Shown here: piece after piece, positions 2,477 through 40,800 of the stretch
Position numbering within the stretch: the first letter of the stretch is position 1
How the letters are laid out: every line of letters begins with the position of its first letter
From: Escherichia phage Pollock
Strand: one strand, 5' to 3'
Length of the DNA: 64,000 nt
Sequence record: NC_027381.1
Program-made: the position numbers and the translations under genes
The notes under the pieces: model-generated
Told to the model about the DNA's origin: nothing
The model's input: the letters and a program-made list of their open reading frames with translations, nothing else
The model's database searches: none

Positions 2477-2722
2477 ATGAATAAAGAATTAATATTTATT
2501 CTTAGTTGCATACGTGAATCAATGTGTGATTACACAGAAGATGAATATGAAAATGATACATCTCAATATACGAAAACAGATGACTTATGTCTTGAAGTAA
2601 TGCTCCATAAATGTTCTTCCTTTCCTAAAGAAGAAAAAAATTGTAATGCTTGCCTATTAACTTATAAAAATAATATTGGGTATTCATCTCAAATAACAAT
2701 AGTTATTCAAAAATTAATCTAA
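2477..2722 (+). CDS. Small Cys-rich protein, paralog family member (MNKELIxIL N-terminus)
   Basis: N-terminus MNKELIFILSCI shared with ORFs at 3044, 3214, 3387, 3599, 4381, 5732 and 5923; several Cys in C-x(n)-C ... C-x2-C spacing. Confidence 0.45.
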   Translation: MNKELIFILSCIRESMCDYTEDEYENDTSQYTKTDDLCLEVMLHKCSSFPKEEKNCNACLLTYKNNIGYSSQITIVIQKLI

Positions 2723-2795
2723 AGATTATCAATATTGGTAGTCCAATATTAATGTCTCTTTAGATAGTTACTCGTTAATCCAAAAGGATATCAAT

Positions 2796-3035
2796 ATGTC
2801 AAAGAAACCTAAATCACTTAAACTGCAAGAAGTTAAATTAGGAGATGTTCCTGATTATTTAGTTACTTATAGTCGTGTAGACCGTATCTGGGGAGTACAT
2901 ATTAATGGTACTTCTGTATATATTCTTAAACGATTAGTAGGTAAAAAGTACATGTATTATGTAGGTAGTCGTTATTTTAAGACACTACGTAATGCAATAT
3001 TTAGTGTTGTATTAGGAAATTCACTTCCTTTCTAG
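2796..3035 (+). CDS. Hypothetical protein, 79 aa
   Basis: ORF with AAGGA upstream; no recognisable domain. Confidence 0.35.
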   Translation: MSKKPKSLKLQEVKLGDVPDYLVTYSRVDRIWGVHINGTSVYILKRLVGKKYMYYVGSRYFKTLRNAIFSVVLGNSLPF

Positions 3036-3043
3036 GAGAAGTA

Positions 3044-3217
3044 TTGAACCAAGAATTAATACTTATTCTCTCATCTATAAGTAAATCAAAACTTTGGTGT
3101 AATTGTTATCCTATAGCATGTACTGGAGTACATTGTTTTCATTGCGTTTTGTATGAGGATATCCAACCTAGTATGTATATTGCTAAAATTTTAAAAATAG
3201 GTGAGAGAATACTATGA
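3044..3217 (+). CDS. Small Cys-rich protein, paralog family member (TTG start, hand-called)
   Basis: Translation LNQELILILSSISKSKLWCNCYPIACTGVHCFHCVLYED; AGGAG about 7 nt upstream of the TTG; stop overlaps the next paralog start. Confidence 0.4.
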   Translation: MNQELILILSSISKSKLWCNCYPIACTGVHCFHCVLYEDIQPSMYIAKILKIGERIL

Positions 3218-3390
3218 ATAAAGAATTGATAGCTATTCTTAATTATATAGAATCATGTCCAAATTTGTGTATTCACCTAACTCCACATATTGCTTGTAAT
3301 AATATTTCATGTACTTGTTGTCCTATGTTTAGAGTAATTAGAAGAACTTACTTTAAAGACATAGCAAAAGTAGTAGAAAGAATAGTATGA
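3214..3390 (+). CDS. Small Cys-rich protein, paralog family member (hand-called, 58 aa)
   Basis: Translation MNKELIAILNYIESCPNLCIHLTPHIACNNISCTCCPMF...; ATGA overlaps with both neighbours. Confidence 0.45.
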   Translation: MNKELIAILNYIESCPNLCIHLTPHIACNNISCTCCPMFRVIRRTYFKDIAKVVERIV

Positions 3391-3602
3391 ATCAGGAATT
3401 AATACTTATTCTTAAATCTCTGTGTAATATAGAAGATTACTCAATAAGAGGAATTCTATGTACAGTCATAATAGCAAAACCAAATGAAATAGGATGTGAA
3501 CACATATCATGTAGTAATTGTTATTTTGTTAGAACAGGGCCTGTAAAACACGAATATAAATTAAAAATTAGAGAAACAATTGAGAACTTTAAAACAATAT
3601 GA
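3387..3602 (+). CDS. Small Cys-rich protein, paralog family member
   Basis: MNQELILILKSL N-terminus; CEHISCSNCYF Cys cluster; 4-nt overlap with the next paralog. Confidence 0.5.
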   Translation: MNQELILILKSLCNIEDYSIRGILCTVIIAKPNEIGCEHISCSNCYFVRTGPVKHEYKLKIRETIENFKTI

Positions 3603-3805
3603 ATAAGGAATTATTATTAATAATTCAATCACTAGTTAATTTAATTTATCTTTATCATAAGAATATGCTTTGTAAAGAAATAAGAGGAAAAGCTCCGAAA
3701 TTACACTGTATCGGTGTAGAGTGCGCTAATTGCTATTATTCTTTGTCTTCTCCTGTAGAAAAAAGATATGGCTTAAAGATAGAAACCACCATTAAACAAT
3801 TCTAA
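3599..3805 (+). CDS. Small Cys-rich protein, paralog family member
   Basis: MNKELLLIIQSL N-terminus; CIGVECANCYY Cys cluster. Confidence 0.5.
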   Translation: MNKELLLIIQSLVNLIYLYHKNMLCKEIRGKAPKLHCIGVECANCYYSLSSPVEKRYGLKIETTIKQF

Positions 3806-3827: not shown

Positions 3828-3852
3828 CTGCCTTCGGCAGTTCTGGGGTAAT
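3828..3852 (+). promoter_or_regulatory. Hairpin promoter-like motif copy 4
   Basis: ctgcc-TTC-ggcag followed by ttctggggtaat; about 30 nt upstream of macro-domain ORF 3870. Confidence 0.45.
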
Positions 3853-3869: not shown

Positions 3870-4373
3870 ATGTTAGAAGCTCGCGGTAATATGCTTGAGA
3901 TGGATTGTGATGCTCTATGCATTACTACTAATGGATTTGTTAAAAGCAATGGTGCATCAGTTATGGGTGCAGGTATTGCTAAACAAGTTCGAATAGCTAT
4001 TCCGGGAATTGATAAGATTTTAGGACAGAAAATTGCTCGTGAAGGCAATAACGTTCATCCAATCATTAACCATAATAATATCTGGATAGTATCCTTTCCT
4101 GTTAAACCAATAACTGAAATCAGTAATGGGAGTAACTTCGTAAAACATAAATATTTCCCTGAAGGGACAACAGTTCCGGGATGGGCATGTAAAGCGAATA
4201 TCAACTTGATAGTACGTTCCTGTCATCAGTTAGTAAAACTAGCTAATCAGTATGGTTGGCAGAAAGTATTACTACCTAGACCGGGATGTGGTGCTGGAGA
4301 ACTTAACTGGAATTATGTGAAAAAGGTTATCGAACCTTTATTAGATGACAGATTTATTGTCTGTACTTATTAA
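3870..4373 (+). CDS. Macro-domain-like protein (putative ADP-ribose binding or hydrolysing)
   Basis: N-terminal DALCITTNGFVKSNGASVMGAGIAKQ resembles the macro-domain DA-x-V-N-A-A-N ... G-G-G-V motif region; C-terminal LLPRPGCGAGEL resembles the second glycine-rich loop. Confidence 0.5.
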   Translation: MLEARGNMLEMDCDALCITTNGFVKSNGASVMGAGIAKQVRIAIPGIDKILGQKIAREGNNVHPIINHNNIWIVSFPVKPITEISNGSNFVKHKYFPEGTTVPGWACKANINLIVRSCHQLVKLANQYGWQKVLLPRPGCGAGELNWNYVKKVIEPLLDDRFIVCTY

Positions 4374-4380
4374 AATATTT

Positions 4381-4587
4381 ATGAAAGATGAATTAATCAT
4401 CATTTTAAATGAAATATGGTCATTACCAGAATACCAAAATATACGTGGTCCTAAGGAAGAATTATGTAGAAGAATAACATGTACCGGAGTTCACTGTACA
4501 AATTGTCCTCTTGGTTATTTCTTAAAAGACGAAGATTACGTCTCTCAAATCCATAAAATATTGGAAGTCATTAATCATGAAATATGA
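4381..4587 (+). CDS. Small Cys-rich protein, paralog family member
   Basis: MKDELIIILNEI N-terminus; CTGVHCTNCPLGYF Cys cluster (same CTGVHC as ORF 3044). ORF track begins at 4345; ATG 4381 after the macro-domain stop is the likelier start. Confidence 0.5.
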   Translation: MKDELIIILNEIWSLPEYQNIRGPKEELCRRITCTGVHCTNCPLGYFLKDEDYVSQIHKILEVINHEI

Positions 4588-5500
4588 AACTCAACTCCTG
4601 ATTGAATCTATGTTCAACCGTCATCAAGAACGTGAACTCATTAGAAATGAATTAAGAAGTTCACCTGAAATTATGGAGTTAGTTAATGCTGCTGTTAGTA
4701 AAGCATTGGAATGGGTTAAAGGAGATTACTTTGAAAGTAAGAATAAACGTTTAGCTTTATTAGATACCAATATTTTAGAAGATTTTTATATTGATGTTGC
4801 TGGTTCATTGGCTCAGTTTGGTAAAGCTAAGTATACCCAAGTAGTAGGTATGGTGTCTGGGATGATAACTACTATGTCTCAGAAAGAGGCTATACGTACT
4901 GCTGGCGAGTTAATTTCATTAGCAGCTATGGTAGACCTAGTTGATGTGATTCCTGCGTCTATGAGCATTACAGGCTCTATGGAATTGGTTTCTCGTATTC
5001 AACTTGAACCAAAAACATTAGAACTGATTGACCAGTATCAGTATCTTCCTCCAATGATTGTTCCACCTGAACCAGTTAAATCAAATACTGGTAGTGGATA
5101 CCTGTCTATTAAATGGGATTCGTTAATTCTTAAAAAGAATCATCATGAACATGATATCTGTTTAGATAATATCAATAGATTCAATTCTGTAGCATTTTGT
5201 CTGAATGAACGAGTTATCCGTAATATTCGAGATAATCGTAAACATCTGGATAGTGCTAAAGCAGATGAGACTGCTGATGAGTTTAAAGCACGAGTAGAGT
5301 CATTCCTAAAAATGGAAAAAGAATCTATGAAAGTATTTGCAATGCTCATCAATGAAGGAAATAGATTTTATCTAACTCATAAATATGACAAACGAGGACG
5401 TACTTACTGTCAAGGTTACCATGTCTCCTACCAAGGTAATACGTATCGTAAAGCTATTCTTGAATTAGCTGATAAAGAAATAGTACCTATTGAGGAATAA
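4577..5500 (+). CDS. Phage RNA polymerase II subunit 1 (N-terminal portion of a T7-like RNAP; N4 RNAP II small-subunit analog)
   Basis: C-terminal DKRGRTYCQGYHVSYQGNTYRKAILELADKE aligns with T7 RNAP DWRGRVYAVSMFNPQGNDMTKGLLTLAKGK; upstream of the catalytic subunit ORF as in N4-like phages. Confidence 0.7.
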   Translation: MKYETQLLIESMFNRHQERELIRNELRSSPEIMELVNAAVSKALEWVKGDYFESKNKRLALLDTNILEDFYIDVAGSLAQFGKAKYTQVVGMVSGMITTMSQKEAIRTAGELISLAAMVDLVDVIPASMSITGSMELVSRIQLEPKTLELIDQYQYLPPMIVPPEPVKSNTGSGYLSIKWDSLILKKNHHEHDICLDNINRFNSVAFCLNERVIRNIRDNRKHLDSAKADETADEFKARVESFLKMEKESMKVFAMLINEGNRFYLTHKYDKRGRTYCQGYHVSYQGNTYRKAILELADKEIVPIEE

Positions 5501-5502
5501 TT

Positions 5503-5739
5503 ATGGCTGAATTATCTAAACCAGAACAACTCATTAAGATTACGTTATTACTCCGTAATATTCCAAATGAGTTAGATACGCATTTTTGTAGTACTCATCC
5601 TGCATGTGAAAAATTATGTGGACCTAAACATGATAAAAGTAAATGTGCTTTATTTACATGCTCTGAAGAAGAGATTAAGAAAACTATCTTTGGATTAGAT
5701 GCAGCAGGGAGAATGTTAGGAATTATCCCTGATGAATAA
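5503..5739 (+). CDS. Small Cys-rich protein, 78 aa (divergent)
   Basis: Multiple Cys (CSTHPAC, CGPKHDKSKC, FTC); lies between the two RNAP subunit genes. Confidence 0.4.
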   Translation: MAELSKPEQLIKITLLLRNIPNELDTHFCSTHPACEKLCGPKHDKSKCALFTCSEEEIKKTIFGLDAAGRMLGIIPDE

Positions 5740-5926
5740 AGAATTAGTTTTAATCCTTAAAGAAATAAAAAGAGTATCTGAAACTTCTAAACATGGATGT
5801 ACTGGTAGTAAATTTAAAGAATTATTTCGTTGTTTAAATGTATCTTGTGGAGTATGTATATTAAATAATATACAAAATCCAAAAAAGTATAATTATCAAA
5901 TATTCTCTATTCCAATAAATCTATGA
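5732..5926 (+). CDS. Small Cys-rich protein, paralog family member
   Basis: MNKELVLILKEI N-terminus; CLNVSCGVC cluster. Confidence 0.5.
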   Translation: MNKELVLILKEIKRVSETSKHGCTGSKFKELFRCLNVSCGVCILNNIQNPKKYNYQIFSIPINL

Positions 5927-6135
5927 ATAAACAATTTATTCTTATATTGGATTCAATTAGGGATTGGGCAAAATCAGAATTTTCTTGTAAGGGTGGACTG
6001 TTAACTATACGCGATACATATATAAATGAACATTTATGTGGGTATTTATGTACCTCATGCCCTATTGTTCAAGTAAGAAGTAAACAACTTTATCCCGACC
6101 AAATCATTCAAACTTCCTCTCAACTAATTAAGTGA
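5923..6135 (+). CDS. Small Cys-rich protein, paralog family member
   Basis: MNKQFILILDSI N-terminus; CGYLCTSCP cluster; 4-nt overlap with the RNAP catalytic subunit start. Confidence 0.5.
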   Translation: MNKQFILILDSIRDWAKSEFSCKGGLLTIRDTYINEHLCGYLCTSCPIVQVRSKQLYPDQIIQTSSQLIK

Positions 6136-7370
6136 GACTCAATATGCAACAGTTTACAGCTTTCCAATATATCAAATTAGATATTGCTAACTCTTTTGGT
6201 TTAGATAAAGAACTGTTTGATGACCGTATCAAATGGTTTGAAGAAAACAAAAATAATTTAGCTAATTTGGTAAATGATGCAGATGAACCTGCTCAATTCT
6301 ACGCAGGTATGTTGGCATACCAAGATGTACTGGAAGGTAAACCAATTGGTTATTTAGTAGGTATGGATGCTACTGCATCTGGATTGCAGTGTATGGCTGC
6401 ATTAACTGGCTGTAAGACTACCGCTGAAACAGTAAATCTTATTGACCCTAATTGTCGTAAAGATGCTTATACCGATGGCTATAAAGTCATGGGAGAACTA
6501 CTTAATGGCAAGATTGATAAGATTGACCGTAAGGATTTGAAGGGAGCTATTATGACTCACTTCTATGGTTCTCAAGCAAATCCTAGAAGTGTATTTGGTG
6601 AAAATACTATAGAACTACAAAAGTTCTATGAAACTGTTCAAACCATTGCTCCCGGTGCAAATATGCTACGAGATGATTTAATCAATCTCTGGCAACCAAA
6701 AGCACTTCAACATTTATGGGAATTACCAGATGGCTTTACTGCTGTCGTTAAAGTAATGACCATGAAAGAAGAAAGCTTTGAAGTAAATGAATTAAATAGT
6801 TCCTTTACTCATCGTTATTGGGTTAATGAGGGTCAGGATTTTGGTTTATCACTTGCTGCTAATGTTGTTCACTCTGTAGATGGGATGGTAGTACGTGAGA
6901 TGAATCGTCGTGCTAACTACGATGAAACCAAAATACAGCGTGTATATGAGCTTCTGACTGGTTCAAACAATACAGGTATTGTGGACTATACAGTAGATGA
7001 TAAACAGCTTAAGAGAGCTATTGAGCTTGCTGAAAGACATCGTTTTGTTTCTACTGTGATGATTGAGTTCATTAACCATGAGAATGTACATATGATTCCT
7101 TTATGGATTAAGAACCAACTCATCGAAATTATTGAGAAGATGTTGGCTCATAAACCATATGCATTAATTGCAATTCATGATTGCTTTAAATGCCATCCTC
7201 TGTATATGAATAACGTGCGTCAGAACTACATTGATATCTTTGCTCAGATTGCAGATAGCACAATGCTTCAAGCAATTGCATCTCAAATCTCTGGTAAACG
7301 TATTCCAGTAACTAAACTGTCTAATGACCTTTCAACATACATTCGTAAATCCAACTACATGCTTAGTTAA
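6132..7370 (+). CDS. Phage RNA polymerase II catalytic subunit (T7-like single-subunit RNAP palm and fingers)
   Basis: Motif A-like GMDATASGLQC (T7 DGSCSGIQH), motif B-like RKDLKGAIMTHFYGS (T7 KRSVMTLAYGS), NVVHSVDGMVVRE (T7 NFVHSQDGSHLRK), motif C-like IAIHDCF (T7 LIHDSF). Confidence 0.85.
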   Translation: MRLNMQQFTAFQYIKLDIANSFGLDKELFDDRIKWFEENKNNLANLVNDADEPAQFYAGMLAYQDVLEGKPIGYLVGMDATASGLQCMAALTGCKTTAETVNLIDPNCRKDAYTDGYKVMGELLNGKIDKIDRKDLKGAIMTHFYGSQANPRSVFGENTIELQKFYETVQTIAPGANMLRDDLINLWQPKALQHLWELPDGFTAVVKVMTMKEESFEVNELNSSFTHRYWVNEGQDFGLSLAANVVHSVDGMVVREMNRRANYDETKIQRVYELLTGSNNTGIVDYTVDDKQLKRAIELAERHRFVSTVMIEFINHENVHMIPLWIKNQLIEIIEKMLAHKPYALIAIHDCFKCHPLYMNNVRQNYIDIFAQIADSTMLQAIASQISGKRIPVTKLSNDLSTYIRKSNYMLS

Positions 7371-11069: not shown

Positions 11070-11153
11070 ATGCGTCCTACAGCTATTAAAAAAGCTATTG
11101 AAAGAGCTTTTGCAGCAGGACTTGTTCCTTTTATTAAAGGTAGTCCGGGTATT
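11070..11153 (+). CDS. MoxR-like AAA+ ATPase, exon 1 (N4 gp24-like)
   Basis: Encodes MRPTAIKKAIERAFAAGLVPFIKGSPGI, ending in the first half of a Walker A motif (GSPGI) right before an in-frame TGA. Confidence 0.65.
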
Positions 11154-11543: not shown

Positions 11544-11786
11544 GGTAAATCTGCAATTATTCGTCAAATTGCAAAAGAAGCTAAATTATTGGTTATTGAC
11601 CTTCGTTTAGGTCAATGTGACCCAACTGATTTATTGGGATTTCCAAATATTGAGAATGGACGGTCTGTATATCATCCACCAAAAGATATTCCAATTATTG
11701 GGGATGAAATTCCTAAAGGATATAACGGTTGGCTGTTATTCCTTGATGAAATGAATACAGCACCTAAAGCTGTTCAGGCTGCTGCT
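11544..11786 (+). CDS. MoxR-like AAA+ ATPase, exon 2
   Basis: Encodes GKSAIIRQIAKEAKLLVIDLRL...GWLLFLDEMNTAPKAVQAAA: Walker A completion plus Walker B LLFLDEMN, matching MoxR LLADEINRAPPKTQSALLE. Confidence 0.7.
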
Positions 11787-12630
11787 TAAATTAATAGGCA
11801 TTTATGGGGGAAACCTCATATCTAAAGCTACTTAAAACGGGGAACTCTTAGTAGTGTATATACACTAAAGACAATCCGTTGCTAAATAGGAATTAAGATG
11901 CAAGAAGTTTGGAAAGCTATTCCCGGATATGAGAAAGAATATGAAATTTCTACTCATGGACGGATTAAGAGTTTAGATAGAGTCGTTCCTTGTAAACATG
12001 GCACTCGCCTTGTTAAAGGAAAATTATTAAAAACCTATATTAATCGAAAAGGGTATTTAATTGTTACTTTATCTAAAGAAAATAAACTGAAAACATATAC
12101 CGTACATCAGTTAGTTGCTCTTACATTTATTCCAAATTTCATTAAAGGCACAGAAATTAATCATAAAGACGGTAATAAATCCAATCCAGTATTAGATAAT
12201 TTAGAAATTAGCAACCCTAGCCATAACCAGTTACATGCTATAGCTACAGGTCTTAAAGCAAAGGTTGGTAAGAGTAAATACCACAATGTAACTTACATTA
12301 AAAACCCACGGGCTAAGAAAAAGTGGGCTGCAAGTATAAGTTATAATGGGGAAAAATCTTTTGGATGGAAAACATTTATGACAGAAGAAGAAGCTGCAAG
12401 ATATGTAGATAAACTTCTTGATGAAATAGGTGATACTTCCCGTTTAAGAAATTTCTAATTAATTCCTTAAATGCCCAACGACTAGTCGAAAGACGTAGGC
12501 TCAAGTGAGTCGAAAAAGTAGCTCCCCAAACAAGTAAAGTTGTGGGGATTGATATAGTCTGCTCTATATAGAAATATATAGCTGGATTAATTATCCGGGT
12601 AATGATTAACGACCATTACTGAACATAAGG
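11787..12630 (+). mobile_element. Group I intron carrying an HNH homing endonuclease (intron 2 of the MoxR-like ATPase gene)
   Basis: R-like CAACGACTAG and S-like GATATAGTCT elements downstream of the HNH ORF; exon ends in U, intron ends in G; splicing yields AVQAAAYKLLDRMVGQT, matching MoxR QSALLEAMQERQVTIGGQT. Confidence 0.7.
11898..12458 (+). CDS. Intron-encoded HNH homing endonuclease
   Basis: N-terminal WKAIPGYEKEYEISTHGRIKS (NUMOD4-like), HNH core HQLVALTF...NHKDGNKSNPVLDNLE...HNQLH, C-terminal AP2-like WAASISYNGEKSFGWKTFMTEEEAARYVD. Confidence 0.8.
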   Translation: MQEVWKAIPGYEKEYEISTHGRIKSLDRVVPCKHGTRLVKGKLLKTYINRKGYLIVTLSKENKLKTYTVHQLVALTFIPNFIKGTEINHKDGNKSNPVLDNLEISNPSHNQLHAIATGLKAKVGKSKYHNVTYIKNPRAKKKWAASISYNGEKSFGWKTFMTEEEAARYVDKLLDEIGDTSRLRNF

Positions 12631-13320
12631 TATAAACTGTTGGACCGTATGGTAGGACAAACCAAATTACATCCTAGTGTTTATATTGCTGCTGCTGGTA
12701 ACAAAGATACAGATGGAGCAATTACTACTACTATGAGTAGTGCAACTCTATCTCGTATTGTTAGTATGGAACTAGAAGTTAACTTTAATGATTGGGCTGT
12801 ATGGGCATTAGCCAATAACATTGACCATCGCATCATGGGATATCTTCAGTTCAAACCAGAAGCATTCCATAAATTTGACCCTAAAAATCTTAAAGAACCT
12901 TTTCCATGCCCACGTACATGGGAGTTCATTAACCGTGCTATTAATGGATTAGATGTATCTTTAAATTCTGATTTGGGTTTATTGTCTGGAATTATTGGTA
13001 ATGGCACTGCTCGTGAATTTATTGAGTATTGTGCTATCTATGGTGAGATTGCTTCCTTTGAAGAAATTATGTCTAATCCAGAAAGCATTGTCATCAAAGA
13101 CAGACCAGACATTAAGTATGCATATGCTGGTTTTGTAGCTTCTCGCATTACCCCTGAAAATGCATCTCAATTAATGAAATTCATTAATCGACTGCCCGTT
13201 GAATTTCAGATTGTAACTTTGAGTAATGCTTTTAAAGCTAAACCTCTCATTTCTCAAGTTCCAGAAATAATGGAATGGATTACTCGTTATGCCAACGAGT
13301 CAGGTGAAGGGATGCTCTAA
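12631..13320 (+). CDS. MoxR-like AAA+ ATPase, exon 3
   Basis: Encodes YKLLDRMVGQTKLHPSVYIAAAGNKDTDGA..., the sensor and C-terminal region of an AAA_5/MoxR ATPase; an in-frame stop lies a few codons upstream of 12631. Confidence 0.7.
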   Translation, partial: YKLLDRMVGQTKLHPSVYIAAAGNKDTDGAITTTMSSATLSRIVSMELEVNFNDWAVWALANNIDHRIMGYLQFKPEAFHKFDPKNLKEPFPCPRTWEFINRAINGLDVSLNSDLGLLSGIIGNGTAREFIEYCAIYGEIASFEEIMSNPESIVIKDRPDIKYAYAGFVASRITPENASQLMKFINRLPVEFQIVTLSNAFKAKPLISQVPEIMEWITRYANESGEGML

Positions 13321-31828: not shown

Positions 31829-31855
31829 AAGCCTCTTCCATGAGGCTTTTTCTTT
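31829..31855. terminator. Bidirectional terminator between convergent transcription units
   Basis: aagcctc-ttccatg-aggctt stem-loop flanked by an A-run upstream and a T-run downstream; sits between the plus-strand block and the minus-strand vRNAP gene. Confidence 0.7.
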
Positions 31856-34800
31856 TAGTACAGACTTACTAAAGGATGGATAGTAAATCCATTTAGTGCT
31901 GTACCCATTCCAACGTTATAACTTAAGCTACCTGTTGCTAAGTTTGCTTCCATGATATTAGGTAATCCAGATTCAGCAGTATTACCAAACATAAGGAATA
32001 ATGCTCTTAATGGGTTTTCCCTAATCGTTCTTAAGATAATTTTCTGAATACGAATCTTATAGTTTAAGAACCATGTTAAACCAATAGCATCCAAATAGAA
32101 TCTGGTGCGACTAGGTAATATGTCATAGTTCACAAACTCATCCATTACTCTATTCAATGCACTATCTTTATCCATTGGATTACGAGAACGAGTAGTTAAA
32201 TGCTTATATAGAGAGTATTTAGCAACGAAGTCACCATACTGAATTGAACGATTCAATAAGAAGTACACATTACTATCTCTAGATAAAGTGATTTCTTTAG
32301 CAACACGTTTAACACTATCTGGAATACCAGAAGTGTACTCATCCATTTTAGTAAGTAGTTTATCCTTCAAAGAGTAATCATCCTGCTGACCTAAATCTTC
32401 TGCGATAGTTGGTAACAAACCAGCTTTAATTAAATCAGCTACTGGGTTACGAGCTTGAGAATCTTTAAGTTCAGATATTTTTCTCTGATACTCTTCAGCC
32501 ATTCTTGGATTATGGTTTACAGCCAGATAATGAGAATACTCGTTAATTAATTTCTCATTTCTTCTGTACTCCTCAGCAGCCAGTACAGCAGTAGACATAT
32601 CTTTAGCCATAGTAATTGGGCTAATACCTACCGTAGCCAAATGTACCATGTTAGATAAGATATTCCCTGCGGATACAACTACTGAACGAACTACAATCCA
32701 GTCCTTCATTTCCTTCACAAATTCCATCAAACCACGTTCACCAAGTCTTAGATAGCGTGCAGCATTCTTACCTAAGAATGTTTCTGCAATGTTTACAAAT
32801 GCTTTCTGAAACTCTTTAGAGAAATTGGTTTGACCAGTCCATAGATTCAGTACAGAAGGTTCACGATAACCAAATGCATTATTCAGTAAATCCTTACGTA
32901 CTTTAATTTTCCCATTAGGCCAAATACGTTTGGCTGCTTCTTTCATCTCAATAGGCATCAGTTCATAGATTTCTTTTAACTGATGGTCTGTAGAGTTTTC
33001 ATCTATAGTGATGTATTGATATGCTTTTCCTTCTCTAGCATCCTTCTTATAGATTTCACCAAGTCTTTCTAAAAGCATCTCATTGTATTTGGCAGCCTGA
33101 ATCTCTTCAGCAATACGACCTTCCCAAGCAGCTAATACTTTAGTGAAGTCATTATCTACATTTAATTGAGCTTCTCTATTAGCTCTTGGCATTTGGTACG
33201 AGTATCCCATTATTGAACCAGCGCGGTTTAAAACAGGCTGCATCTGTCCATCATAGTTCTGAGGCATTGGTTTAGAAGCATCAAATAAATCATTGATAGC
33301 AGCTTGTTTATTAGCTGATACCTTGTTCTTTTCTGATGTCTTCCATGCACCCGGGGTCATAGAACCATTAACACTTCTGCCTGTAATTGGGTTTACTCCA
33401 CCTACGGTGCTTTGCAGGGTACTCATTACACCAGCAATCCAACGAGGTTCACCACCATTGTTAGAATGGTAGTAGTACATTGGAGTTTTATCTGTATCTG
33501 CTGGGTCACGTTTAACTTGAGCACCTCTGGTATAGCCTCTACGAGATAAGCTTGGTTCATCCTTAATGGATGCAATAATTACTTTTTTGTTTGGGTCAGT
33601 GATAGTAGGAGTAAATCCTTTAACTGCTGCCAAAGAATAGTTATTACCAGATTTAGCTAACTCAGCGCCTTTAAGGCTTTCATAGTATTTGAGAGTAAAA
33701 GTCATACCATTATTATCTGGTTCACCTTTAGTCATCTCTCTACTGATTACATTACTTACTGTTTCTTTATCTGCTTGAGATAATTCAGTAAGAGCACTCA
33801 ATGAAGCCAAGGTATCAATTAACTGAGTAGCTATTTCAACAGCATCATTTGATGGTCTTTCTCTACCAGTACCAATCAAACGTGCAATAGCAGCAGCATT
33901 TGATAATTGGTATGCCAGTGGAGATACTCCATGCACCATCTGTTTAGCTAAACCATGAGCAGATTTAATATAGAATGCAGAGTTTTGAGCACCTGCTTTT
34001 TGTAACTGAGATTCTATTAAATCTATCTCTTTAGCTAACTCATTTGGATTAGTTAATAATTCATTTAAACGAACCAAGTCATACCCATTAGCAAACAGGT
34101 ATGCCATATCTGTATTGGCAACTACTCTCTGAATAGCCTCTTTCTCATTTTGGTTTAAAGAAACAAACGTTTTTTCAATCATACCCGGAACCATCTCACG
34201 AATAATCTGACGTGCTCTATCAGCAGCCATATTTTTCTGAGTTAATAAGGTATGAATACTACTGTTGGTTTCATTAGAACCAATAAATTCATTAATGAGT
34301 TCAGCGATAGTACCTAGTTTTCCATCCTGATGAATGGTCATATAAATGTGAGTTATAGCCTCACGTACATCATGAGCATCTTGTTCATTAAATACTGCTG
34401 CTCCAACAGTAATACCAAATGCTACAGACTTAGGTACTTTCTTCTCTACTTTGCTTAACTGCTTACGAATAGAGTTACCAAAAGCTCTCAACCTATCTTG
34501 AGTAGCTTCAGTGATTTCTTCTGTACCTCTACCAATTCTGGTAAAGAGATTATCTCTTGCCTGACTATCTACATGACTAATGTTCTTAGCCAGTTTAGAT
34601 AAACGAGAAGCAATATTTGTATCTCTTAAAGATTTAGTAGCTAAGCCAGATAACCAAGTAAGAATCATATTAGTTAAATCACCAATACGTTCTCTAAGAG
34701 ATGTAGCCTGATTCTGTCTGGTACGTTTAACACTAATTTGAGACAGCTTATTTCTTAATTGTTCATTGGTTTCAGCCAATGCAATAAAGTTAGCAAGTCT

Positions 34801-37800
34801 GTTAGTACGACCAGTAGCATCAGTAGTAATAGCTGTATTGCCAAATACTGCATCATATCTTTGTTTAGCTAATGCCATTTCATTAGCAGAACGATTGTTA
34901 GGGTCAGTTAAGAAATCTTCTACTTTTAAGTTTTCTCTGGCTTGCGAGTACAAACTACGTGCAACCAGAACACTTGGAGAAAAGTTCTCTAACCCATATT
35001 TCATAGATACTTGCAGCATCTTGAATACAAATGCTTCTTTCTCACTCATGTTAAAACCATGAGCAATTAATGCATTTGGTGAGTCATCAATTTCTGGGTC
35101 AATGCTATCTACCAAAAGTTTATCTTGGTAATGCTCTAAACCAGATATTTGCTGACCAGTATTTTTAATTACTTTAATGATATTGGATTGTAAGTAATCC
35201 AGAGTATCTGTTAGATGATTTACATGTTCCTGAGATGCTTTACCTGCATCCAATTTATTAAATAATGTTTCTGCATCTAATCTATTAATGTTGTTAGCAT
35301 TTTGCTGAGCATAGCTTGTTGTATCTCTGGATTTAACAGGATTGGTAGCATCAGCCAAAGCAACGGTATGGCCTAACAAACGAGTCCAGTAAGAAGTAAT
35401 GTCTGGATTAGAGCCAATAGCAAACAGACGTTTAATAGATTCAGCTAATTGCTTAAGTACCTTTGTTACAGTTCCTGTAATAGTTTTTTTAGTCATTGCA
35501 TCAATCATCCTTGGGTTAACAAGACCCCATGCAATGAATTCAGCAGTAGCCTGAGCCATATCACCAGAAGCAATATGATTATTAATCAAGTCTACAACAC
35601 TATCTGTTTCAGGATTCGTACTAGAATACTCATTAACAAATTTAGTCATGAGTGCTTCTATTGAAGCAATCTCTACTTTTTGAGCAGGAGTTAATGCTTC
35701 TGGATTACTGTAATAATTGTGAACAGCATTAGCAGTAGCAGCATGAATTAACTCATGCATTACAGTCTCAATAGACTGAGAACCAATATAGATATTCTGT
35801 CCCTGTGTAAGCCCTAAGAATGAGTTATTAAACTCAACCTTAGTATCAGGTGTCATTTCCTGTTGAACGGCTGAGAGAGCTTCTGGAGAGCCTACATACA
35901 CATTAATATCTTCAGGAATAGAGTTAGCAATCTTATCTAATACGAAGCTAGTAATTCTATTTTGACGAGAAGGTAAAGATTTAGCTGCTTCTTTAATAGC
36001 AGCAATCACATCACCTTTAGACAGTACTTTAATTCCATCATGTCCTGATACATTTCTTCCATTTTTAGCCAATGCTTCAATCATTTGACGAGTAGGAGGA
36101 ATAGTTACTCTACCTTTAGGGAGAGATACTGATTCCATAGTAGGAAGTTCTGTATTAGCAATTAACTGTTCTAAAGGAGTTCTGGTATCAATTGCTTCTT
36201 TATCAGTCTGCTTACCATTCTGAACATTGAATGGAATATTAGCCCCGGTCATTTGGTTAATAGAAGTAACTGCTTCTCCTCCTAATAAACCTTGTTTAAT
36301 AGCAGTTTGAGTAGCAGCTTCTTTTTTAAGAAGTGTAGTAAATGCTTCTAACACTTCTGGGCTAGTAGGTGAATTGGTTTCATCTGCTCCAATCATTTCC
36401 ATAATTCCACGGAAAGATTGTTCCAAACGTGTATCTGCATCTGGACCTAATTCTTCAGTTAGATTTACTCCTTCCATCGCTTGCTCAAAACGATTAGTAA
36501 AATCTTGAAGTAAATCAAATTCATTCCAACTTTGCAGAACACCTTGGTTAATAGCTTGAGAACCAGTATCTAAATGAGCTACAGCATTAATATAACCATC
36601 AAATACGTTAAGGGCATTGTTAGGGTTAATATCACGAGCAATAGCCTGCATAGCTGCTTCTACAGATTGAACCAATAAAGGCATTACACGAGTACCTGGT
36701 TCAGTATAAGTAGGAGTATCTACACCAAAAGTAGCACGACGCATTTTACCATCCAGATTTCTACGTCCTCTGGATTCCATACGATAAATATCAAATGTGA
36801 CTCTACCTTCTTCACTCAGAAGAATACCTTCATTTAATTTAGCTGCATCAGTATTACCAGCAGTAAACCAAGAGTTAAAGATAGGCATCTGAGTAATCAG
36901 TTCTCTCTTAATCTCGTTATATTGCTGCTGAGAAAGAGATTCATACTTAGATAATTTACCTGCTTCTCTAAGTTCTTTTTCTTTAGCTTCTACTACTTTA
37001 TTCCAACGAGACATGAATACTTCATGCATTACAGCAGCAGCATAAACCATCATCTTGCCGCGATTGATTACAGTACCAAATTCATTAGCAATTGATTCAT
37101 TTACTGCTGCACCAATACCAATTTTGATGTTTTGGGTAATTGCTTCAATCTGCTCGCTAGTAAACTCAAATTTAGTTACATCTTTTCCTAAATTGATAGG
37201 AGCACCAATTTTTACCCAAGAACCATTACGAAATACTTGAGCAGTAGTTAATTCATTAGTTGTATTGGTCAAATCATTAATATGAGCAATTGCAGCATCT
37301 CTATCTTCCTGATTAGTAGCTGAATCTACTGCTCTTAATGCTTCTGTGATTGCTTCGTAATAACCATTAGCAATACCCATAGCAATCTTTCTATTGATTG
37401 CATTAGCACCACCAGAATAAACAGTAACTGTTACTGGATTTTTAAGTAATCCTCGACCTATTTGGATTGGATGTTCTACATCCTCTCCTTCAACAATATT
37501 TACATCACCAATTAGTTTTGATGCAGCAAGAGTTACCCTTACCTGATTTTTCAAGCGTTCAATATCTCTCATCTCTTTTTGTTGGAATTGTCGAGATTTA
37601 TTTTTAAGGGCAGCTAACCTGTTAGGGATATTACTGTAAGCATCCATCATGTTGTTGATGTATTGCTGTGAGCCAGCAGCAGCAGTTTTATACAGGTCTA
37701 AGAATCCCGGTTCTTCAGCAGCATCATTGTATAGACGGTCTGATTGCCCATAGAACAAACCACCTTTCTCTAACTTATTCAGTAAATCTTGGTTCACGTC

Positions 37801-40800
37801 TTTTAAACCAAGCTGAACAATAGAGTTAAATGGTCCATTAGTTACACCATCAAGCTCCAGCATCACATGAGTCTGGAATGAGGATTTACCTTGTTCTACT
37901 GCTAATTCATATTGAGCTTGTGCATATAAAGCATGGAGTGTTTTAGTTTTCTCCTTACCTGCTTTTACAGCTTCTAAAAGAACCTCTGCATCAGCATCAC
38001 TAATTGAATCTTGGTTTTCAGCAGCTTTTAGAATATTGATAGCATCTCTAAATAAACCAGTACTGATAGCTTTATTTAGCTTATCTCTGGCAGTCTCAGA
38101 AGAGAGTTTATCAACAGCAATATCCAATCCTTGAGCAATAGCATAATCAAGAAATGCACCATGTTGAGGATTGTTGAGTTCAATAGTAGAAGGTTCAACA
38201 GTAATTAATTCACGATGTAATTTAGCTGACTGAGGGTTTAAATCCCCTGAGTTAAGCATCATACGGAAGTTACTAATTACGTTATATGCAAAATAAATAG
38301 GTGTATTAGCCAGAGGTAATCCAGCTTCTGACATACGAGTTAAACCGTTAATCAGAGTATTAATATCTCTTTCAATAGTACGGTTAGAACCTTGAATGGA
38401 TTTCAGATGAGCACCATTAGCATTCTCTTCTGATTGAATGCCTAACATTCTACCAATCCATTCTGTACCTAATTTATCCAGCATAAGGTCATGAAGACCC
38501 ATGTTGATATAATGAGGTTGTTTACTGGCTTTGTTACGTGCAGCAAGCATCTTTTCAGGAATATCCTGACCACCACCATTTTTAACTTTAGTGCTCTGAC
38601 CTTTTGGTGGAGTACCAAAGTATGCTCCTGCTTTTTCTCTCTGAGGATTAGTTAATTGACCTAAGAGGTCATTGGAATCCTTCATTAAGTCTACTAAACG
38701 TTTAGCAGCTTCAGATTCTTCATTCATACGAATGAATATACGAGAGTTTTTAATGTTGGATTCATTTACTTTAGTAGAACCAACAGCAGCTAATTCACTG
38801 TTTTTAACAACAGATTCTTGAACCAGATTAGCATTAATCATTACGTTCAATACTTCAGTTGCTAGTGCTTTAGATACAGCATCACGAACAGAGATAGGAG
38901 TATTAGGGTCAGCATTAATACCTAAGATTCCAAAAATCTCTCTGCTTAAATAATCAATAACATTTTGCCGGTCTGTACCTACATTACGTAATAAATCTGT
39001 TTGCTCTACAGTAGGTTTAGTTTTGTTATCTAAACCAAGAATATCCATTACTGTACGGTCATCATTGAATGTAGTTTCAACTGCATTACGTACAAACCAC
39101 TGCATCATACCAGCAGTCATTGCTTCAATTACTGGCTGAGGTAAGAAGTAAACATTTTCACCATTGATATTTCTTACTTCACTAAAATATTCGACAGGGT
39201 ATGTTTCCCAGAAGATACGTTGACCTTCAGGAGTTAATTTACCCCAAGATTGAATTAACGATTGTTCAATAGCAGGGACTAAACCAGCAAATTGACGTAG
39301 TACTTTTACTTCTTTCTCTGTTACTTGTTCTGGTTTAATAAATCCTTTAAACAGATTTTGAATCTGAGTAATAGGATTAGAACCATTGGTAAAAATGTTA
39401 TTAAGTCTTCCAGAGAAATTAGAAGTTCTCAGGAATGCAGAACGTTTACCTGTAGGTTTAAACCATTTTTTAACTTGGTTAGTAGCCTGATAGTTCTTAT
39501 CTGCTTCTGAAGTAGATTTAGCATCAGAACGTACAGTTTCTGATTGCAGACTACTCAGAATATCGAAATTAACACCTTTATCTAAACCAAGTTCTAATTG
39601 AGACTCATCCATTAAATCAGTCTCAACTTCAGTTGGTTTTTCCTGAATCTGAATTTCAGATTCAACTACATCTGGTTTCTCAAATAGTTCTCCTTGAACT
39701 GGAGTACTAGTAGGAGCTTCTGTAACAGCTTCTGGCTGTGTTTCTACAGTCTCAGAAGGTGTTTGTACCTGTTCTTCAGAAACCTGTGCAGAAGCCTCTA
39801 TAGGAGCTTCTGATTCTTGAGTTGAGACTAATTCCTCTGTAGCAACTGGAGCAGATTGTGCTGGCACAGATACAGGTTTACCATCTACTAATTGACTAGT
39901 AATGGTATGTGCTTGACGAACAGCATTAGCATCATTACGAATTTCTTTGATTAATCCTTTAGAACGTACCGGATGATACGTCATAGGATTTCCATCTAAA
40001 GATAAATATGGTTGTCCTGTAGTTGGATTAATTACTTCTACAGGTTGATTACCAGTAAAGTTTTGAGCAGCCTGTTCAAATGCATTAGCTTTAGTTTCCA
40101 TGTGCTCTGCAAAACGGTTTAAATGGTCTAATAAACCTTGAGCACGAGCAGTATCCCCTAAAGATAATGCACGGAAGATACCTTGCTGATACTGTTGAAT
40201 ACCAATAAATCCATCAGAACCTTTACGTACATCTTCTCCTACTTGGCTCATTGCTTTACCAGTAGCAGAGATAATTTTTAATTTATCTACATCCTGCTGG
40301 TTCAAACCAATGGTTTCTGCTGAATTAACTAAACGGTCAGCAACTTCTGGAGTAATAGAAGATGCATCTAAATTCATTTGAGCCAGAACAGATTTAATGT
40401 TCTTTTGTACTTCAGGAGATTTATAAGTTTCTGGAGTAATTTCAGAAGGTAAAGACTCCATAATCTTATTCATTTCTTCTGGAGTCAGTCTGAAGCTTTC
40501 AGCAGTAGTTTTAACTGCTTGTACATCAGGATGGTTCAGCACAGCATTGATATTATCAATAGCTGTTTGATACTGAGCTTTCTCTTCTTCTGGTGCAACT
40601 TCCATCTGTGCTTGAATTTGAGGTAAAGCTTCCTCATAAGCAGAGATAACATTATTACCTACAACAGCTAAATCTCTACGAGAAGCTTCATCCAAATTAC
40701 GTTCTTTAATTGCACGGGAAATTCTCAAAATAGAATCTGGAGAACTAATTTCCTCTTCAGGAATAGCTTTAAATACTTCTTTAGCAGCAGGTTCAGTAAC

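Follow-up and report, generated by a model that had tools for sequence, protein, structure and literature searches.

Why should the genes for the two subunits of one RNA polymerase (RNAP) be separated by three very small, cysteine-rich genes? Escherichia phage Pollock, a published N4-like podophage (PMC4319500), raises this question in the 64,000 nucleotides (nt) analysed here (NC_027381.1). We call this whole stretch the window. In it, open reading frames (ORFs) 5503, 5732 and 5923 lie between RNAP1 and RNAP2, the subunit genes of a T7-like polymerase (Table 1). An earlier note on this DNA could be taken to mean that the insertion is special to this phage and hints at a role linked to the polymerase. 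A comparison with other N4-like phages supports neither idea. Instead, we think that the locus is probably an early operon for RNA polymerase II (RNAPII) that carries passengers of an insertion hot spot. The paralogues among these passengers would be zinc-stabilised binders of host targets, not polymerase subunits. What our analysis establishes is which genes these are, how the family is structured and in how many copies it occurs, how fast the genes evolve and how far their order is conserved.

The polymerase itself is what the earlier note had described. RNAP1 is the N-terminal part. It matches phrog_2166, 'N4-like RNA polymerase', in PHROGs (expectation value, E, 8e-116) and, over positions 165-422, phrog_414, a general profile of phage RNA polymerases, and its residues 150-303 match the N4 RNAP1 chain 6DT7_A (E 4e-43, phmmer against the PDB). 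The catalytic palm and fingers are encoded in the ORF 6132 reading frame. RNAP2 scores well above the gathering cutoff of Pfam RNA_pol PF00940 (71.1 bits, cutoff 22), matches phrog_2051 (E 1e-167) and can be aligned along its entire length with 6DT7_B, the RNAP2 chain of N4 (E 7e-85, about 40% identity). Its further matches include the RNAP2 of numerous N4-like phages and, less strongly, polymerases from T7-like phages. Motif A (D75-ATASGLQ), motif B (R129-x3-K133-x7-Y141-G-S) and motif C (H345-D346) are all present, and D75, R129, K133, Y141, G142, H345 and D346 are unchanged across an alignment of eight genera. Their spacing is the same as that of D537, R627/K631/Y639 and H811/D812 in T7 RNAP.

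The arrangement is also that of the N4 middle polymerase. By tblastn, phmmer and PHROGs, the homologues of N4 gp15 (RNAP1) and gp16 (RNAP2) are two separate genes in the N4 order. The split point is N4's as well: RNAP1 residue 303 pairs with residue 268 of the 269 in N4 RNAP1, and RNAP2 residue 1 with residue 1 of N4 RNAP2. The T7-like polymerase is not a single polypeptide here; its two genes lie 646 nt apart. Judged by sequence, RNAP1 and RNAP2 are the T7-like heterodimeric middle polymerase of N4 type. N4 RNAPII has been crystallised as a two-subunit heterodimer (PDB 6DT7, 6DT8, 6DTA), and LUZ7 RNAPII, which binds the cofactor Drc, was purified from ORF20 and ORF22 only (PMC7145618).

Is a filled gap between the subunit genes unusual? 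With an RNAP2 profile we fetched 80 N4-like loci from IMG/VR and could place both subunits in 79 of them. The gap is shorter than 150 nt in nine loci, between 150 and 500 nt in 19, between 500 and 1000 nt in 30 and at least 1 kilobase (kb) long in 21. Its median is 729 nt and its maximum 4.7 kb, a gap that holds 16 ORFs. ORFs are present in the gap at 70 of the 79 loci, and small genes between RNAP1 and RNAP2 of other N4-like phages are already in print (PMC2784036; PMC3915230). Hence the insertion is not special to this phage. Measured against the survey, the 646-nt gap of Pollock with its three ORFs is typical, and only the content of the gap is clade-specific.

This content is extremely diverse. 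Grouped by BLAST, the 222 ORFs of the gaps form 136 families, 110 of which are singletons. Some gap ORFs resemble homing endonucleases with NUMOD1 or AP2 domains. In VL3, Presley and VBP32 the gap holds a small paralogous set particular to each phage. The gap seems to be a general site of small gene family expansion in N4-like phages. The number of families, the paralogues elsewhere in the genome and the two-subunit RNAPII of N4 and LUZ7 all speak against the polymerase-linked role that had been read into the insertion.

Several other gaps have contents worth recording. The N4-like loci L007 (2611-3466), L008 (2922-3504), L009 (1799-3435), L029, L079 and L036 carry tandem sets of small ORFs of their own, similar to one another within a set. 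In Pantoea phage G19, a lytic-type N4-like phage, the gap contains an AbrB/MazF toxin-antitoxin pair and a UmuD-like gene on the opposite strand (L006 4584-5518).

The three small ORFs of Pollock do separate the subunit genes as previously noted, and all are rich in cysteine (Cys). ORF5503 has 5 Cys in 78 residues, ORF5732 has 4 in 64 and ORF5923 has 4 in 70 (5.7-6.4%); the mean in window ORFs of at least 150 amino acids (aa) is 0.8%. Profile searches divide them into two kinds, ORF5503 versus ORF5732 and ORF5923. The latter two belong to a multi-copy four-Cys family, phrog_16571, with eight copies in the window: ORFs 2477, 3044, 3214, 3387, 3599, 4381, 5732 and 5923. Leave-one-out hidden Markov models (HMMs) recover seven of these with E between 3e-5 and 1e-12, and ORF2477 is a further, weaker match. 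The earlier note did not mention the six additional paralogues upstream (2477-3805 and 4381-4587).

ORF5503, the gp17 of Pollock, is not recovered by the four-Cys family HMM when it is left out of the model. It falls into a separate PHROG, phrog_22821, and its family has four conserved Cys of its own. HMM-to-sequence searches between the two small-protein families gave no matches. An hhalign comparison of the two matches helix to helix and each of the four Cys to its counterpart, but with P 0.036 and a probability of 1.4%. A distant shared origin of the two families is possible.

What kind of proteins are the paralogues? In the alignment of the window ORFs they start with MN(K/Q)EL(I/L)xIL, followed by a Cys cluster. 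Among 41 members, taken from six genomes, no residues but the four Cys are invariant; their pattern is C-x(n)-C-x4-C-x2-C, probably a structural zinc site. Nine related loci carry 5-12 copies per genome, all in the early region. An exhaustive profile search of 1.84 billion proteins found 168 clusters at 50% identity. Nearly all of these database members are stand-alone proteins of 55-90 aa. A few two-domain fusions exist in other phage-like contigs; the distant two-domain relatives P0193 and P0126 lie in other phage-like runs of small ORFs, a context that provides no functional clue. Isoelectric points in the family span 4.2 to 10.2.

Neither the small ORFs nor the 41 members have a consistent Pfam family, and the model of the multi-copy family has no fold match. 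Weak matches to Lar (E 0.017), RING and CCCH, each in one member, were treated as chance. N4 gp13 (61 aa, 5 Cys) was rejected as a relative: its Cys layout is different, and a search of 18 sequences gave it 7.7 bits. The Ogr/Delta activators and Lar are phage-encoded proteins of about 60-80 aa with four Cys, like the Pollock family. Unlike the multi-copy arrays of Pollock, they are single-copy regulators. They also differ in Cys spacing, and no consistent Pfam or fold match links them to the family.

The two kinds of small ORFs evolve at very different rates. Compared with Salmonella phage FSL SP-058, RNAP1 is 92% identical at the aa level with a ratio of nonsynonymous to synonymous substitutions (dN/dS) of 0.08, and RNAP2 is 86% identical with a ratio of 0.13. 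ORF5503 changes about as slowly (87% identity, dN/dS 0.11). The family members score much higher, at 52% identity and 0.52 for ORF4381, 49% and 0.53 for ORF5732, and 44% and 0.81 for ORF5923; all of these dN/dS values are rough because the sequences are short and the method is simple. Synonymous divergence (dS) is 0.55-0.95 for the three family members versus 0.64-0.72 for neighbouring genes. Since dS is similar, the family members compared are likely to be true counterparts whose proteins change fast. Hence the four-Cys family is fast-evolving, and ORF5503 is slow like the polymerase subunits.

These data bear on one alternative explanation, namely that the small ORFs have no function and are either chance ORFs in an AT-rich spacer or the remains of a decayed mobile element that split the polymerase gene. 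We find this hardly credible. The region is indeed AT-rich (33-36% G+C), but ORF5503 is under strong purifying selection, the Cys are invariant in all 41 local sequences of a family with 168 database clusters, and the ORFs are retained in nine genomes. Mobile elements do occupy the gap in other phages. In Pollock, an intron or homing element as the origin of the gap was rejected on the evidence of Rfam, which finds no intron in 5500-6140 and places the only group I intron of the window at 11143. Pfam finds no endonuclease motif, and N4 has the same split point with an empty gap. A point in favour of this explanation is that the original annotators did not call ORF5923.

How could such a locus work? 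In the interpretation that we favour, the space between the subunit genes would be a permissive insertion hot spot, filled by lineage-specific small genes in most N4-like phages. Its occupants in the Pollock clade would be gp17, plus gp18 (ORF5732) and ORF5923 from a birth-and-death family of 55-90-aa proteins, each built from an N-terminal 'MNKELILIL' helix and a four-Cys structural zinc site. The injected virion polymerase would transcribe the region early from a hairpin promoter at about 3828. Translation would be packed and partly coupled, so that the small proteins would appear in the cell together with RNAPII. The fast-evolving paralogues would then act as small zinc-stabilised binders of host targets, in host takeover or counter-defence. 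Functions of these two types usually reside in early-gene families of this kind in phages. Zinc binding, promoter use, coupling and function are the parts of this account that we infer.

The proposed promoter comes from a scan for perfect stems of 5-8 base pairs with 3-nt loops. Hairpins with a TTC loop, followed by GGrGyAAT, occur on the + strand of the window at 61-73, 1499-1515, 1552-1566 and 3828-3840. Weaker hairpins lie at 682 and 2315. SP-058, Pylas and TR2 keep the hairpin at 3828, with its 5' flank cgcttcgctcct, ahead of their macro-domain gene. The same scan of the first 14 kb of N4 gave exactly three hairpins, at 90, 557 and 4546. We take the hairpin at 557 to be the P2 early promoter, and the one at 4546 sits just upstream of gp15. 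The window hairpins are putative early promoters of the N4 virion-RNAP type. A scan for sigma-70 promoters is uninformative, as shuffled sequence gave more matches than the real one.

No terminator-like sites were seen between 3850 and about 8113. A single early transcript would run from about 3840 through the macro-domain gene, ORF4381, RNAP1, the three small ORFs and RNAP2, and beyond. The view that the small ORFs share a tightly packed operon with the subunits is supported by the hairpin at 3828 and by the lack of terminator-like sites in this stretch downstream of it.

The junctions within this operon are less uniform than the earlier note had claimed. It had described overlapping stop and start codons throughout. 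ORF5732 and ORF5923 do share an ATGA, and ORF5503 and ORF5732 overlap by 8 nt. A spacer of 2 nt with a GAGGA Shine-Dalgarno sequence follows RNAP1, and 8 nt separate the ORF5923 stop from the RNAP2 start at ATG 6144. ORF5923 would overlap RNAP2 only if the latter started at GTG 6132 (6132-7370, + strand, 412 aa). This possible alternative start is without support, as every homologue, the protein of N4 and that deposited for Pollock begin at ATG 6144. Because stops and starts overlap or lie within 8 nt of each other, co-expression and some translational coupling are reasonable to infer. Co-translation of the small proteins with the subunits is plausible at some junctions but not at all of them.

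Several points weigh against the interpretation that we favour. The survey consists of the 80 best matches to Pollock RNAP2 and is not a random sample of the phage family. Zinc binding is read solely from the Cys pattern, and for the multi-copy family AlphaFold2 gave a weak model (predicted local distance difference test, pLDDT, 66). RNAP1 residues 1-149 fail to align with N4 RNAP1 and are unrelated to it at the sequence level; according to a published proposal, this N-terminal domain recruits different cofactors in different phages (PMC7145618). The placement of the paralogues is a further point. Similarity and position were used to cluster 83 members of the family, drawn from nine loci. In eight of these related loci a family member reaches the start of RNAP1 or overlaps it, with overlaps of 3-28 nt; in Pylas an HNH gene intervenes. 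Another member ends 9-28 nt 5' of RNAP2 in all nine. The ORF5732 type is found in only part of the nine loci. A member before each polymerase gene, with ORF5503 in between, is more order than a random hot spot predicts. This fixed frame could reflect a link to the polymerase.

Such a link is the core of a second explanation, in which ORF5503, perhaps together with the paralogues on either side, serves RNAPII as an accessory factor specific to the clade. As a small zinc-binding cofactor, it might dock on the divergent N-terminal domain of RNAP1 and be made in step with the subunits. ORF5503 is present in one copy per genome and is as slow as the subunits. Ten genomes have it, nine of the 80 IMG/VR loci and Pantoea phage G19, and in every one it sits between the two subunit genes. 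These genomes span at least four genera, with RNAP2 identity falling as low as 49%, and the position is kept even with other insertions, although inherited synteny within one clade alone can explain it. Slow evolution, fixed position and an RNAP1 N-terminal domain unlike N4's make a polymerase role for gp17 possible. Yet N4 and about 70 other N4-like loci lack the gp17 family, and the polymerases of N4 and LUZ7 function as heterodimers. Moreover, Pollock already has a homologue of the gp2-type cofactor at 1607-2020 (N4 gp2, E 1e-17). We consider the accessory factor doubtful, though gp17 is a reasonable candidate to test as a polymerase partner. The AlphaFold2 model of ORF5503 is helical (pLDDT 79) and has no fold match, and the protein contains no known domain.

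The earlier note had named relatives that lack the inserts without any consequence as a case against its own idea. Such relatives exist at the level of the phage family. Within the Pollock clade they do not: nine of nine loci keep ORF5503 and a flanking paralogue. One could go further and propose that gp17 is a third RNAPII component in the clade of Pollock, Ithacavirus, Pylas, TR2 and EcP1, a zinc cofactor matched to the RNAP1 N-terminus, and that the paralogues before the subunit genes help to set production or assembly. We regard this stronger version as more doubtful still. If it were true, the 'minimal' N4 polymerase would have gained lineage-specific partners encoded in its own operon.

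A third explanation shifts the weight from the peptides to their positions. ORF4381 and ORF5923 could be mainly leader cistrons, such that re-initiation on RNAP1 and RNAP2 sets the yield and the ratio of the subunits, while the peptides themselves matter less. The short distances to the polymerase genes in the nine loci (3-28 nt over RNAP1 or 9-28 nt before RNAP2) are what this explanation expects, as is a Shine-Dalgarno sequence that is weak or absent for RNAP1 and ORF5923. However, the four invariant Cys and the conserved N-terminal helix show selection on the protein, and the majority of copies lie away from the polymerase genes. Pylas tolerates an HNH gene between the paralogue and RNAP1, and N4 manages without such a leader. 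Leader cistrons are therefore improbable as the main role of these ORFs.

A comparison with named phages shows where the Pollock arrangement begins and ends. N4 agrees with Pollock in gene order and split point; RNAP2 aligns over its full length and RNAP1 in its C-terminal half. Both phages have an early region of hairpin promoters, putative in Pollock, and a gp2-type cofactor gene. N4 differs in its gap, which is 47 nt long with nothing between the subunit genes, and it has no homologue of either small-protein family of Pollock.

Both families are found in SP-058 and SP-076 (Ithacavirus), Klebsiella phage Pylas, Salmonella phage TR2 and Enterobacter phage EcP1. The layout is that of Pollock: a paralogue, RNAP1, the gp17 homologue with one to three paralogues, and RNAP2. 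Details vary. Two paralogues precede the gp17 homologue in EcP1, SP-058 has an additional 46-aa ORF in the gap, Pylas has its HNH gene before RNAP1, and copy numbers among these relatives range from 5 to 12. Individual paralogues share only 27-52% identity; the polymerase subunits of SP-058, Pylas and TR2 share 71-92%. Further away, the roseophages DSS3phi2 and EE36phi1, phages of the LUZ7/LIT1 type, Presley and VBP32 have small genes inserted at the same place, but these are unrelated to the genes of Pollock. The gap genes of VL3 and Presley are not Cys-rich; in VBP32 two of seven ORFs have four Cys.

Much of this locus is known already: the phage is published, the polymerase genes are annotated, and small genes between the subunits have been remarked upon since 2009. 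What is modestly new is an undescribed, fast-diversifying four-Cys family, present 5-12 times in each genome, whose members frame the two polymerase genes in a conserved way. In the literature that we searched, we found no published account of a Cys-rich family in N4-like phages. The gap survey also quantifies the space between the subunits as a general and highly variable insertion hot spot in N4-like phages. Finally, at least two genes, ORF5923 and ORF3387, appear to be missed in the deposited annotation. Their exact sequences are absent from a collection of 15 billion proteins, which does contain their neighbours as Pollock proteins with consecutive accessions (AIX12377 and AIX12378 in the case of ORF5923).

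Table 1. Positions of the polymerase genes, the small ORFs and associated features in the window
Feature	Position	Strand	Description
Upstream array of the four-Cys family, five members	2477-2722, 3044-3217, 3214-3390, 3387-3602, 3599-3805	+	broken by unrelated ORF 2796-3035
Candidate virion-RNAP early promoter hairpin, CTGCC-TTC-GGCAG	3828..3840	+	perfect-stem scan
Macro-domain / 'phosphatase' gene	3870..4373	+	first gene after the 3828 hairpin; phrog_335 E 1e-27; weak Pfam Macro match
ORF4381	4381..4587	+	directly 5' of RNAP1, last 11 nt overlap RNAP1 start; HMM E 1e-12; phrog_16571 E 4e-30
RNAP1 (Pollock 'RNA polymerase 1', AIX12375)	4577..5500	+	307 aa; N-terminal subunit of N4-type RNA polymerase II
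ORF5503 (Pollock gp17)	5503..5739	+	78 aa; single-copy, four conserved Cys; phrog_22821 E 6e-54
ORF5732 (Pollock gp18)	5732..5926	+	64 aa; multi-copy four-Cys family; phrog_16571 E 2e-28; HMM E 3e-8
ORF5923	5923..6135	+	70 aa; directly 5' of RNAP2; family HMM E 3e-5; phrog_16571 9e-4
RNAP2	6144..7370	+	catalytic subunit (palm, fingers, motifs A/B/C); deposited Pollock protein 408 aa

Gene calls of the family deserve attention in other places as well. Pollock gp15 was deposited as an 80-aa protein from ATG 4345, overlapping the end of the macro-domain gene. The family alignment favours ATG 4381, where the conserved N-terminus MKDELIIIL lies. Several family members of FSL SP-058 are also unannotated, for example those at 890, 1306, 1834, 2013, 2183 and 4874 of locus L001.

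Exact look-ups assign RNAP1, ORF5503, ORF5732, RNAP2 and several ORFs upstream to Pollock, and an IMG/VR copy of its 68,365-bp genome agrees with the window at 100% and in its coordinates. Pollock has been classed within the Humphriesvirinae (PMC7650795). Among the records of the phage collection, those of Salmonella phages S5 and FSL SP-058 come closest (about 82% nucleotide identity). The macro-domain gene is 88% identical between Pollock and SP-058, with dN/dS 0.08. The window encodes homologues of N4 gp2, gp6 and gp12, and a full-length virion RNAP at 31855-42468 (phrog_2206). The N4 gp6-like small early protein is unusually conserved: the 52-aa ORF at 1330-1485 is 85% identical to N4 gp6, versus only 37-40% for the polymerase subunits.

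ARAGORN found no transfer RNA (tRNA) genes in the window. Four have been reported for the Pollock genome (PMC4319500); they may lie in its last 4 kb, beyond the window. The same genome paper reports an intron in the DNA polymerase only (PMC4319500). In the window, an N4 gp24-like ATPase gene is in three pieces (11076-11153, 11544-11786 and 12631-13263). Its first gap contains a group I intron (Rfam RF00028, 11143-11495, 101 bits), and its second gap contains an endonuclease ORF with HNH_3 and NUMOD4 domains (11898-12458).

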